This document shows positions 6,046-34,885 of a DNA stretch of 40,380 nt, piece by piece. A program made the position numbers and the translations under genes. The stretch comes from a virus (Duplodnaviria; Heunggongvirae; Uroviricota; Caudoviricetes): positions 1 through 40,380 of IMG/VR virus record IMGVR_UViG_2744054872_000003. One strand, written 5' to 3'. Below the pieces are notes generated by a model. The model ran no database searches, had not been told where the DNA came from, and saw only the letters and a list, made by a program, of their open reading frames with translations. Positions within the stretch are counted from its first letter, which is position 1. Each line of letters starts with the position of its first letter.

Positions 6046-6060
6046 TTACCTTTCGGGTAA
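6046..6060. promoter_or_regulatory. Operator-like inverted repeat TTACC-TTTCG-GGTAA
   Basis: Perfect motif copy upstream of the 6137 gene. Confidence 0.5.
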
Positions 6061-6099: not shown

Positions 6100-6115
6100 C
6101 TGTATAAATATACAG
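6100..6115. promoter_or_regulatory. LexA (SOS) box CTGTATAAATATACAG
   Basis: Matches CTGT-N8-ACAG with an AT-rich centre, one mismatch from the E. coli consensus CTGTATATATATACAG; 21 bp upstream of the 6137 start. Confidence 0.65.
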
Positions 6116-6136: not shown

Positions 6137-6394
6137 ATGCAGCAGTATCACTATCCACTGGAAGACGGATTTACCGAAAGGATTCACACGCCGGGAGGCG
6201 TCAGGTCACTGGTGGAGGGATCGCATTTGATGAAATTACTCCGGGATCTCGATAAGGATGGATTTAATGTCGATGGCCCACTTGCCGAACTGACTGCACT
6301 GATTAACTACGTCACCAGCTCACAGATGTCTATGCGGGATCTGCAAACACATCTCGACTATTGTGCCGAACAATTACGAAAACAAACCAGATAA
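6137..6394 (+). CDS. Small protein homologous to the C-terminal domain of the adjacent antirepressor
   Basis: Aligns over about 85 aa with residues about 145-228 of the 6708..7394 product (shared pattern PL-G-IH-P-GV-L-E-S-LM-LL-DG-V-G-AELT-Y-RD-QTH-Y); GGAGAAG RBS. Confidence 0.55.
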   Translation: MQQYHYPLEDGFTERIHTPGGVRSLVEGSHLMKLLRDLDKDGFNVDGPLAELTALINYVTSSQMSMRDLQTHLDYCAEQLRKQTR

Positions 6395-6425
6395 GGTTTG
6401 CAATTGCCAAGTGGAGTGCTTATAT

Positions 6426-6440
6426 TTACCTTTGCGGTAA
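6426..6440. promoter_or_regulatory. Operator-like inverted repeat TTACC-TTTGC-GGTAA upstream of the antirepressor leader
   Basis: Perfect motif copy. Confidence 0.5.
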
Positions 6441-6707
6441 ATTTACATCGCACTCCTCTTGTGCCATAGTAATCGGGCACTGGCAAAATCCAGTGCCGGG
6501 ATTGGCGTCCCGAGTTACTACAGAGGCACATATGCCGCATAAGCGGTTTTTTTTATGTGTAAAGCGCACCTATTCTATGGTGGGCTGTGTGGGGGCACCG
6601 AAAGGTGCGCCGGGTCCTTTGTAGCCGGTTACGCCAACCCTGCACAGTTCACCACCAACCGATTGGCGTCGGTAGTGGTGATTAACCTAACTACAAAGGT
6701 GATCACT

Positions 6708-7394
6708 ATGACTGCTAACGTAACCCCATCTGTTTTTCATTTTGAATCAGAAGCAACCATTCGAGCCATTGTTATTGATGGAAATCCTTGGTTTGTTGCC
6801 AAAGACGTTATTAAAGCTCTTCAACTGACAAACCCCACTATGTCAATAAAATCTCTTGATGATGATGAAAGGGCTAAATTTAACTTAGGCCGTCAAGGCG
6901 AAACCAATATTATCAACGAGTCAGGCCTCTACACACTGATCCTCCGCTGCCGCGATGCAGTAACACCAGGCACTATCCCCTACCGCTTTCGCAAATGGGT
7001 TACAGGTGAGGTACTTCCTCAGATCCGCCGCACCGGAAGTTACATTAAAAACTCGCTCCCGCAGGAAGAACGCATAAAGATGGTTGCCGACCAGGTAGCC
7101 AACGCCACGGCGTCAGCAGTGATGCAGGCAATGAAGATAGAGAACAAAACCTACAGTGCCCCACTGAAGCCCGGCTACCGTAGCCTGATTCATTCGCCGT
7201 CTGGTGTTCTCGGCCTGACGGAGAACTCACTGCTGATGAATCTGCTGAACAAGTTACAGGAAGACGGGCACGATGTATCGGGCGCGGCAGCGGAGCTGAC
7301 CACCATGTTCTGCTACATCGTCGGTGTGAGCAAATGCCTGCGTGATATCCAGACGCACGCGGAGTACATCAACGACAAAGCAGGGTTCTTCTGA
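6708..7394 (+). CDS. Antirepressor, Bro-N domain protein
   Basis: N-terminus FHFESEATIRAIVIDGNPWFVAKDV...NESGLYTLILR fits the Bro-N pattern; AAGGTGA RBS before ATG at 6708; the ORF-track extension to 6555 looks non-coding. Confidence 0.7.
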   Translation: MTANVTPSVFHFESEATIRAIVIDGNPWFVAKDVIKALQLTNPTMSIKSLDDDERAKFNLGRQGETNIINESGLYTLILRCRDAVTPGTIPYRFRKWVTGEVLPQIRRTGSYIKNSLPQEERIKMVADQVANATASAVMQAMKIENKTYSAPLKPGYRSLIHSPSGVLGLTENSLLMNLLNKLQEDGHDVSGAAAELTTMFCYIVGVSKCLRDIQTHAEYINDKAGFF

Positions 7395-7466: not shown

Positions 7467-7481
7467 TTACCTTAAAGGTAA
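7467..7481. promoter_or_regulatory. Operator-like inverted repeat TTACC-TTAAA-GGTAA overlapping the RBS of the 7494 gene
   Basis: Perfect motif copy directly abutting the AAGGAGG Shine-Dalgarno. Confidence 0.5.
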
Positions 7482-7493
7482 AGGAGGCGCGAT

Positions 7494-7661
7494 ATGACAG
7501 CGTTGAAAAATCGTACTCAGCACAATGAACAAGCCAAGCAATGCTGGGATGTCATTGGAAAAGTTATGCTTGGCCGCGCAAGCAAAGAGCGCGACAAGGA
7601 TATGGTTTACCAGACAGGAACATCTTTCAGCGACTTCAAGGCGGCATTTCGCTCCAAATAG
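7494..7661 (+). CDS. Small hypothetical protein (55 aa)
   Basis: Strong AAGGAGG RBS; protein-like composition; not in the ORF track because it is under 60 aa. Confidence 0.4.
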   Translation: MTALKNRTQHNEQAKQCWDVIGKVMLGRASKERDKDMVYQTGTSFSDFKAAFRSK

Positions 7662-7681
7662 AAGCACATCAGGAGTTTTCC

Positions 7682-8122
7682 TTGAAGTTTAACATTAGAA
7701 TATCTAATAGTTTTCTACATGGGGAAAGCAACACCCCTTTCGCTGTAGACGGACCTTTCCTTACTGATGATGAAATAAAAATCATACAAAGTTTTTTAGA
7801 GGATGTTGCCAATGGAAGGGCGCTTGTTGGAAAAAACAAGCCCTCGTGGGTTGATGATAACCATGATAAAATTCCCGGCTCAGACAATTATGAGCAAGAG
7901 AATTATTGGCATTATCATTGTGGGCCAACATGGTATCCAAACACATTTAAGAATTATACCATTAACTTAAATTTCAACCCTGGCGGAAGGCATTCTAATG
8001 AATGCATTCATTATGCAAAAAATGATAATGAAATTGTCATTGTTGGATTTTCAAGAGAACACATACCTTTCCTTTCATCAGATGGAAACAACAATCCGCT
8101 TTTTAATGATGAAGAAGAATAG
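7682..8122 (+). CDS. AT-rich accessory gene of unknown function (147 aa), probable TTG start
   Basis: ORF with no in-frame ATG after 7541; AGGAG RBS 6 nt before TTG at 7682; markedly AT-rich; acidic C-terminus; ends at a strong terminator. Confidence 0.45.
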   Translation: MKFNIRISNSFLHGESNTPFAVDGPFLTDDEIKIIQSFLEDVANGRALVGKNKPSWVDDNHDKIPGSDNYEQENYWHYHCGPTWYPNTFKNYTINLNFNPGGRHSNECIHYAKNDNEIVIVGFSREHIPFLSSDGNNNPLFNDEEE

Positions 8123-8143
8123 CCCGCGCTGCGGGCTTTTTTT
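8121..8143 (+). terminator. Rho-independent terminator
   Basis: AGCCCGC-GCT-GCGGGCT hairpin followed by T6. Confidence 0.75.
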
Positions 8144-8215
8144 GTGGACGAAACAAAAGTCAGTGCTACACTCATTGACGCCACATTGAGGTGGCTTATA
8201 GATGGAAATTTCACA

Positions 8216-25313: not shown

Positions 25314-25390
25314 GTGGCATTAGCTCAGTTGGACAGAGCAACCGCCTTCTAAGCGGTTGGTCGCAGGTTCGAATCCTGCATGCCGCGCCA
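25314..25390 (+). tRNA. tRNA-Arg, anticodon TCT (reads AGA)
   Basis: Hand-folded cloverleaf: 7-bp acceptor stem GTGGCAT/ATGCCGC (one G-U), D-arm GCTC...GAGC, anticodon stem ACCGC/GCGGT with loop CTTCTAA, T-arm GCAGG-TTCGAAT-CCTGC, discriminator G, encoded CCA. Confidence 0.85.
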
Positions 25391-31703: not shown

Positions 31704-31718
31704 TTACCTCTTAGGTAA
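31704..31718. promoter_or_regulatory. Operator-like inverted repeat TTACC-TCTTA-GGTAA overlapping the DUF1064 RBS
   Basis: Perfect motif copy. Confidence 0.5.
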
Positions 31719-31765
31719 TTAAGAACCACATAAGACACGAAATCAATAGAGTTTAGAATATTTTG

Positions 31766-31780
31766 TTACCTGATAGGTAA
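31766..31780. promoter_or_regulatory. Operator-like inverted repeat TTACC-TGATA-GGTAA
   Basis: Perfect motif copy, 48 bp upstream of the previous one. Confidence 0.5.
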
Positions 31781-33781: not shown

Positions 33782-34012
33782 TCATGAGTAGAAGAAGTAT
33801 GCCAGTTCTGCTTTTGAGCGCAGCCATTGTCTTGTTTTACAGGCTTTAAAAAGCCCATTCATCAATACTTTACCTGGCATTTTTCGCTTGCCTGTTAAGT
33901 GAGTCTGGATATAGTGACTCGTCGTTCCGGCTTCCTGTGCGAAGGCTTCACGCTCATCCGGAGTAAGTGCAAGCCAGTGCTTTTTGAAATCGAAATGTCC
34001 GTTATCGCTCAT
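33782..34012 (-). CDS. Cro-like small DNA-binding regulator
   Basis: 76 aa, transcribed divergently from the repressor gene across the tripartite operator region; HTH-like segment around AQEAGTTSHYIQTHLTGKRKMPG. Confidence 0.5.
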   Translation of the reverse strand: MSDNGHFDFKKHWLALTPDEREAFAQEAGTTSHYIQTHLTGKRKMPGKVLMNGLFKACKTRQWLRSKAELAYFFYS

Positions 34013-34048: not shown

Positions 34049-34111
34049 TCACCCATAAGGTAACAAAAATCAAGGATAGTTACCTATGAGGTGCATTTAC
34101 CTGTTGGGTAA
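34049..34111. promoter_or_regulatory. Tripartite operator region with divergent promoters (OR-like)
   Basis: Three motif copies: TCACC-CATAA-GGTAA (34049..34063), TTACC-TATGA-GGTGC (34080..34094), TTACC-TGTTG-GGTAA (34097..34111); the minus-strand TTGTTA-N17-TATTAT promoter for the cro-like gene overlaps the first. Confidence 0.65.
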
Positions 34112-34166: not shown

Positions 34167-34751
34167 ATGAAAAGTATCCAGGACGTCCGCAGGCAAAATC
34201 TCAACGACTTGATCGACCGTGAATTCAATGGTGTTCAGACGCGGATGGCAGAAAAACTTGGAACTCAGGCAAATCTGGTAAACCGCTGGGCTCTTGGCAA
34301 GAAGGTTATCGGCGACCAGGTTGCGCGAAAAATTGAAGCTGCCGCCAATAAACCCCGTAACTGGCTTGATATCGATCGCTCGCTTTCTCAGGAAGGTTTT
34401 CAGCCTGTCGGCCCAAGCGACATTGGTCAGCTGGCGGCTCACAACCTGGAACGCTGGATGAGCGAAAGCCGCGACCTTTCAACACAGGGAAAACTTCACC
34501 GCGCATCCGGCGTCGCCCAGGTGACAATCAGCCGCCTGTTAAACAATGAGGTCAGCGTTTCCATTTCCACCCTGGAGAATGTTGCATCTGCATTCGGGCG
34601 TCACGGATATGAACTACTGATTCATCCGCATGACCCTGCAACTATCAACTATGACCGCTCGCGCTACGCATTGTTACCTGAAACAGAGAAGGCAAAGATC
34701 GAAAGTTACATTGAATTTGTCATCAACCAGAACGAAAAAAGCAAACAATAA
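34167..34751 (+). CDS. Prophage repressor (cI-like) with HTH domains and no S24 peptidase domain
   Basis: N-terminal XRE-type HTH (MAEKLGTQANLVNRWALGKKVIGDQVARKIE) and a second HTH-like segment; no Ala-Gly/Ser/Lys autocleavage module; sits upstream of the early-left promoter in cI-like orientation. Confidence 0.65.
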   Translation: MKSIQDVRRQNLNDLIDREFNGVQTRMAEKLGTQANLVNRWALGKKVIGDQVARKIEAAANKPRNWLDIDRSLSQEGFQPVGPSDIGQLAAHNLERWMSESRDLSTQGKLHRASGVAQVTISRLLNNEVSVSISTLENVASAFGRHGYELLIHPHDPATINYDRSRYALLPETEKAKIESYIEFVINQNEKSKQ

Positions 34752-34772
34752 AACTATAGTTTTCAGCAAGTA

Positions 34773-34798
34773 AGCCGCCTCATGGCGGCTTTTTTATT
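34773..34798 (+). terminator. Rho-independent terminator after the repressor gene
   Basis: AGCCGCC-TCAT-GGCGGCT hairpin followed by TTTTTATT. Confidence 0.75.
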
Positions 34799-34808
34799 GC
34801 CCTTGCAA

Positions 34809-34885
34809 TTACCTTACGGGTAATTTTTTTAACTCATATCTATTGACACCAAACCAAATACGCATAATCATTACCTCAACGGTAA
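34809..34885 (+). promoter_or_regulatory. Early-left promoter with two flanking operators (pL/OL-like)
   Basis: TTACC-TTACG-GGTAA (34809..34823), -35 TTGACA (34843..34848), -10-like CATAAT/TAATCA, then TTACC-TCAAC-GGTAA (34871..34885). Confidence 0.6.

Follow-up and report, generated by a model that had tools for sequence, protein, structure and literature searches.

The DNA analysed here, hereafter the window, comprises 40,380 nucleotides and belongs to a phiV10-like (epsilon15-like) Uetakevirus. Its putative immunity region is organised around the gene rep and includes the following elements:

33782..34012, minus strand: cro-like gene, 76 aa, divergent from rep; it matches phrog_35 'transcriptional repressor' (E=4.9e-12) and is syntenic with phiV10p41 and SPC32H_042.
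34049..34111, no strand: candidate operator region OR with three TTACC-N5-GGTAA sites, at 34049-34063 (1 mismatch), 34080-34094 (2 mismatches) and 34097-34111 (exact).
34167..34751, plus strand: rep, 194 aa, stop codon included in the coordinates; from its open reading frame and homology a probable lysogeny repressor of the SPC32H/epsilon15/phiV10 type.
34772..34799, plus strand: intrinsic terminator after rep, with an 8-bp stem (6 GC pairs) and a T-run; annotated as a terminator in phiV10.
34809..34885, no strand: candidate operator region OL with two exact TTACC-N5-GGTAA sites, at 34809-34823 and 34871-34885, their centres 62 bp apart.

The 2 kb of DNA around rep are 97-98% identical to phiV10, the O157 typing phages 9 and 10, PAS61, ZX5 and others. 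The encoded protein, Rep, has an exact (100%) counterpart in a frame of phage HEMP4 and shares 99.5% identity with both phiV10 gp40 and ZX5 ORF21, the repressors of these E. coli uetakeviruses differing from it by at most one residue; the GenBank record of phiV10 gp40 had already noted "two helix-turn-helix motifs". More distant homology is found in Salmonella phage SPC32H, whose rep (KC911856) encodes a protein of 42.7% identity in a tblastn comparison. The SPC32H Rep chain 5d50_A aligns with Rep over nearly its entire length (E=3.5e-42, aa 1-190 aligned to 2-197), 5d4z, which covers Rep residues 92-198, matches the C-terminal half, and in a Foldseek search with the whole Rep model 5D50 and 5D4Z rank first. 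PDB 5D50 is the SPC32H Rep-Ant complex and 5D4Z the Rep 92-198 fragment (Kim & Ryu 2013; Kim et al. 2016). Functional information comes from ZX5, in which free phage disappeared and lytic-gene (holin, endolysin) transcripts fell by more than 99.9% when ORF21 was overexpressed (PMC9782041). Since the gene is divergent from the cro-like gene, is situated between both early operons, is the orthologue of SPC32H rep and is represented by ORF21 in the ZX5 data, a repressor role can be assigned to it, in agreement with the preliminary description, which had proposed a prophage repressor at the position of cI. The repressor is not new, as it is a member of a known and structurally solved family, and it would be better labelled as the Rep repressor of an SPC32H-type Rep/Ant switch than as a generic XRE regulator or a VapI antidote.

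Three modules and one linker can be delimited in Rep:

34167..34382, plus strand: N-terminal HTH domain, aa 1-72, the likely DNA-binding domain (AlphaFold2, Foldseek, invariant NLVNRW, charge +5).
34383..34427, plus strand: flexible, poorly conserved linker, aa 73-87 (pLDDT <50 at aa 74-84; 0-27% identity to distant homologues).
34428..34622, plus strand: middle domain, aa 88-152, with a predicted five-helix XRE/HTH_3 fold (Pfam and 5d4z profile match), equivalent to the middle dimerisation domain (MDD) of SPC32H Rep.
34623..34748, plus strand: C-terminal domain, aa 153-194, equivalent to the CAD (tetramerisation/Ant-binding) of SPC32H Rep (5D50/5D4Z alignment up to aa 190).

This division follows the description of SPC32H Rep in passages of PMC9986798, according to which an N-terminal DNA-binding domain is joined to the MDD and to the CAD, the latter both tetramerising Rep and binding Ant. 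An AlphaFold2 single-chain model of Rep built from 26 homologues (mean pLDDT 76), together with Foldseek and domain profiles, suggests that all three modules are present at fold level as in SPC32H Rep. In the model the N-terminal domain consists of four helices (4-19, 24-31, 35-43 and 50-59), among which helix 24-31, a turn and the recognition helix 35-43 (ANLVNRWAL) would form the HTH. The linker is predicted to be disordered at aa 74-84, the middle domain to comprise helices 83-100, 107-114, 118-125, 133-142 and 147-151, and the C-terminal part to contain a low-confidence stretch (157-166) and a long helix (172-193). The profiles of the individual domains match 5d50 residues 2-74 (N-terminal) and 5d4z_A residues 4-68 (middle, E=6.8e-20). 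With the N-terminal domain alone, Foldseek returns the N-terminal domain of 5D50 first, and then the HTHs of lambda cI, HigA, HipB, SinR, C.BclI and YdaS.

In Pfam, HTH_3 (PF01381) is detected in Rep at aa 106-147 only (E=1.2e-9, 38.5 bits vs a cutoff of 23), and HTH_26 likewise scores above its cutoff for this second HTH; the N-terminus gives only below-cutoff matches, to YdaS_toxin (aa 21-61, E=3e-4) and DUF739. SPC32H Rep displays the same pattern, with HTH_3 at aa 109-150, within the crystallised 92-198 fragment. The XRE-type HTH that the preliminary description had placed at the N-terminus is hence acceptable at fold level, its sequence being only weakly HTH-like, and the second HTH-like segment named there, VAQVTISRLLNNEVSVSISTLENVASAFG, corresponds to Rep aa 116-144 and is borne out by the HTH_3 match. 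What had been overlooked is the third module (~aa 153-194) beyond the second HTH. The opposing architecture considered at that stage, in which one HTH is followed by an unrelated oligomerisation fold at the C-terminus, was right in anticipating an additional oligomerisation module but not in the number of HTH folds, of which there are two, the second itself probably oligomerising. A recent internal duplication of the HTH was also considered and rejected, as the two domains compared with each other in hhalign give a match that is in register but weak (probability 11%).

The palindrome TTACC-N5-GGTAA occurs at 14 sites with at most one mismatch in the window, against 0.64 expected, and in each of 100 shuffles the count stayed below 14. 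In the window and likewise in phiV10, SPC32H, BUCT711 and Tyrion, no other 5+5 palindrome is as frequent as this one, whose sites are intergenic and syntenic. The centres of the OR sites are 31 and 17 bp apart, a three-site OR of the same arrangement is present in SPC32H, and the first site overlaps the predicted minus-strand promoter of the cro-like gene (34066->34038). The OL sites flank the predicted promoter of the recE/recT operon (TTGACA-17-AATCAT, 34843-34871), and this pair is kept at a spacing of 62-63 bp in all five genomes. Elsewhere in the window, further operator-type sites were located by the palindrome search:

31704..31780, no strand: second operator-type pair with 62-bp spacing (31704/31766), upstream of the DUF1064 gene block; kept in all five genomes.
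6046, 6426 and 7467: sites upstream of ant, of the Bro-N gene and of a small cassette, respectively.
3290, 24977 and 33712: sites upstream of the lysis genes, of the head genes and of the gene after cro, respectively.
28086/28104: sites directly ahead of the terS ATG.

Judged by position and conservation, TTACC-N5-GGTAA is likely the operator of Rep, rather than that of the cro-like protein or of both. As the dispersed sites precede many gene blocks, and as their positions are kept in five Uetakevirus genomes, they suggest genome-wide control by Rep, either alone or jointly with the cro-like protein. The epsilon15 genome paper reportedly presents a similar 17-bp inverted repeat as a putative operator. 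Of published work on operators in Uetakevirus, a literature search brought up the ZX5 paper and no other. The window also holds a tRNA gene (25314-25387, plus strand; Rfam tRNA, 69 bits), which separates the terminase block from the head block, as in ZX5 and SPC32H.

Far from rep, a second locus contains the components of an antirepressor system:

6046..6060, no strand: operator-type palindrome upstream of the ant promoter, syntenic with sites at SPC32H 20013, phiV10 20877, BUCT711 16965 and Tyrion 21776.
6100..6115, no strand: LexA box CTGTATAAATATACAG, an exact match to CTGT-N8-ACAG, 21 bp upstream of the ant ATG.
6137..6394, plus strand: ant, 85 aa, matching 5d50_E 'Anti-repressor protein' (E=1.4e-46) and ~87% identical to SPC32H Ant.

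The ant gene is preceded by the ribosome-binding site GGAGAAG, 5 nt upstream of its ATG. In SPC32H a LexA box, CTGTATGTTTATACAG, occupies the equivalent position upstream of ant, and the order of operator-type palindrome, LexA box, ribosome-binding site and ant is common to both phages. The preliminary description had predicted that inactivation of the repressor would depend on an antirepressor; the Ant homologue and its perfect LexA box, in the SPC32H layout, agree with this prediction. The conserved parts and their arrangement support the view that Rep does not cleave itself but is relieved by a small antirepressor under SOS control, and the 85-aa frame 6137..6394 should be labelled as the SOS-controlled antirepressor of Rep. 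Ant of the SPC32H type reportedly attaches to the C-terminal domain, without competing for the surface that binds DNA. Divergence between the two phages is uneven, with Ant ~87% identical to its SPC32H counterpart and the Rep domain that is reportedly bound (34623-34748) 43% identical, as is Rep overall.

Homologues of Ant in the window are the frame 6137..6394 and the C-terminal part of the protein encoded by 6555..7394. This protein has a Bro-N domain (E=7.7e-20) and, over its last ~80 residues, homology to the small Ant (5d50_E, E=2e-13; phrog_450). From its sequence, the Bro-N protein can be regarded as the second carrier of the Rep-binding Ant module in the window. The true start of its gene is probably the ATG at 6708, since the first 51 codons of the frame 6555-7394 overlap a C4 antisense RNA (Rfam match 6573-6659, 79.5 bits). 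This RNA and an isrK Hfq-binding RNA (Rfam match 6477-6553, 74 bits) both lie in the interval from ant to the Bro-N gene. The stretch 6432-6556 is much more stably folded than its shuffles (z=-4.7) and has a terminator at its end, and ahead of both RNAs a promoter is predicted (TTGCAA-17-TATATT, 6398-6426) that abuts or overlaps the operator-type palindrome 6426-6440. In this arrangement, the region 6398-6659 resembles a P1-type immI (c4-ant) module that may control the second antirepressor. In ZX5, overexpression of a Bro-N antirepressor ('ORF4 anti-repressor') lowered lysogeny (PMC9782041); ORF4 is probably the counterpart of the Bro-N gene of the window rather than of the small Ant.

Downstream of the Bro-N gene, a two-gene cassette (7494-8122) consists of a 55-aa frame (7494..7661, phrog_8607) and a frame of ~143 aa (phrog_5954) inside 7541..8122. 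It is preceded by an operator-type palindrome (7467-7481) and a strong ribosome-binding site, and followed by a terminator-like hairpin near 8123-8145. Neither Pfam nor PDB gave a match for the cassette, which could represent a moron or a defence or toxin pair. The 193-aa frame 7541..8122 was also considered as a phiV10-type Bro-N antirepressor and was rejected, having no PDB or Pfam match.

The record of phage BP9, in which the gene is annotated as 'antidote protein VapI', would imply an antitoxin of the XRE/HigA/VapI type or an accessory regulator in place of an immunity repressor, and the HTHs of the antitoxins HigA and HipB are indeed among the fold neighbours. However, no toxin gene is adjacent, and the divergent position opposite the cro-like gene and between two early operons, the orthology to the genetically and structurally characterised rep of SPC32H, and the overexpression data of ZX5 favour a repressor, which renders an antitoxin very unlikely. 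As regards the mode of inactivation, many prophage repressors act by RecA-stimulated self-cleavage, and Rep might do so by means of an unrecognised cleavage site or catalytic domain. We found no supporting evidence for such cleavage of Rep. The absence of an S24 peptidase module, claimed in the preliminary description, held in a Pfam search in which Peptidase_S24 gave no match even at E<=10, and inspection for a cleavable linker revealed no Ala-Gly or Cys-Gly dipeptide anywhere in the 194-aa sequence. In addition, the C-terminal 107 residues align with the all-helical or short-strand structure of Rep 92-198 and not with a LexA-like beta fold, and a LexA-controlled Ant is present in the window. 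Taken together, these points make a self-cleaving Rep extremely improbable.

A further matter is which of the two HTHs reads the DNA. The preliminary description had suggested tandem contact with DNA by the two HTHs of each chain, whereby a chain or dimer would span two adjacent operator elements. It could be argued in its favour that of the two HTHs the second is the closer match to Pfam HTH_3 and carries the typical SQ...G(V/I)(A/S)Q.T(I/V).R pattern, with Q107, Q118 and R123 invariant in 26 closer relatives, that the Foldseek neighbours of the middle domain include the DNA-binding domains of NHTF, SinR and DdrO, which genuinely bind DNA, and that two OR sites are only 17 bp apart. Yet in a comparison set of four phages, whose Rep proteins are 43-78% identical and which have the operator palindrome in common, the N-terminal recognition-helix motif NLVNRW (aa 36-41) is invariant, and the canonical contact positions of the second HTH vary, Q107 being replaced by E and Q118 by P in SPC32H. 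The operators hold one type of half-site only (TTACC), which is kept in SPC32H despite these replacements. Identity to SPC32H Rep amounts to 53% in the N-terminal, 34% in the middle and 43% in the C-terminal domain, and the net charge is +5 in the N-terminal and zero in the middle domain. Moreover, a dimerisation role is ascribed to the equivalent domain of the solved homologue, whose binding to DNA requires the tetramer: according to passages of PMC9986798 and PMC9638917, SPC32H Rep dimers bind DNA only weakly, the tetramer being the binding form, in which the paired DNA-binding domains belong to different dimers. An operator spacing of 62 bp also lies beyond the reach of two domains on a 15-aa linker. 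All this speaks indirectly against tandem reading, which we consider unlikely; the second HTH is most likely a dimerisation module rather than a second DNA reader, and DNA is probably read by the N-terminal HTH in spite of its lower score. As the example shows, the domain with the strong HTH_3 match is not necessarily the one that reads DNA. An intermediate case is conceivable because Q107, Q118 and R123 are invariant in the closer relatives and the HTH_3 signature is strong: the middle domain might dimerise and also keep a DNA contact, for example next to or between paired operators, or one restricted to the E. coli/Enterobacter branch. There is little probability of this either, but Rep would then be bivalent, and with its disassembly by Ant both kinds of DNA contact would be lost together.

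The reading that we prefer, and hold to be very probably correct as a whole, is that rep encodes a lysogeny repressor orthologous to SPC32H Rep and acting as an Ant-sensitive tetramer. The N-terminal lambda-repressor-like HTH (aa 1-72) would read TTACC-N5-GGTAA, the middle XRE-fold domain (aa 88-152) would form Rep dimers, and the C-terminal domain (aa 153-194) would join two dimers into a tetramer, the latter two functions having been shown for the 43%-identical homologue. The paired operators fit a tetramer with two pairs of N-terminal domains better than they fit reading by the two HTHs of a single chain. One such tetramer, bearing both pairs on flexible linkers, could occupy two palindromes at once, and its paired targets would be the OR sites 17 bp apart and the OL sites 62 bp (~six helical turns) apart around the promoter. 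The spacings of all operator pairs, i.e., 17 bp at OR and 62 bp at both OL and 31704/31766, appear compatible with binding of a tetramer. Upon DNA damage, LexA would leave its site at 6100-6115 and the 85-aa Ant would be made, as has been shown for SPC32H. Tetrameric Ant, which according to passages of PMC9638917 binds two Rep dimers and thereby breaks the Rep tetramer, would then be expected to bind the C-terminal domains of Rep dimers here as in SPC32H, so that the DNA-binding tetramer is broken and the operators are freed.

Among known systems, the closest is that of SPC32H. It has in common with the present phage full-length homology of Rep, the three-part layout, the Pfam pattern, the genomic position, the operator palindrome and the three-site OR, as well as a small Ant behind a LexA box. 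The differences lie in the extent of sequence conservation (43% identity overall, 34% in the middle domain), in the host, which is E. coli for the present phage, and in the Bro-N-fused Ant-domain protein of the window, which has no annotated counterpart in the SPC32H record. The lambda CI, P22 C2 and LexA type of repressor resembles Rep in the lambda-repressor-like N-terminal HTH, in the divergent cro-like gene and in the several operators at OR and OL that are occupied cooperatively. Unlike these proteins, Rep has neither an S24 autopeptidase domain with its Ser-Lys dyad nor an Ala-Gly or Cys-Gly cleavage site, would oligomerise via an HTH-fold domain and a small tetramerisation domain, and would be inactivated by sequestration or disassembly and not by cleavage.

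The antirepressors of coliphage 186 (Tum) and of Gifsy/Fels-2 offer a parallel to the regulatory logic, as the SOS input is likewise conveyed by a small LexA-repressed antirepressor and not by repressor cleavage. The repressor and antirepressor families of these switches are, however, not known to be related to Rep and Ant. A comparable architecture is also displayed by Rco of the Bacillus plasmid pLS20, for which passages of PMC9986798 describe an N-terminal HTH DNA-binding domain, a p53-like domain for tetramerisation at the C-terminus, looping of the DNA from one operator to another and relief by the protein antirepressor Rap. In contrast to Rep, Rco is without a middle HTH-fold dimerisation domain; it also belongs to another type of element, and the signal that it obeys is a peptide-sensing Rap rather than SOS and LexA.
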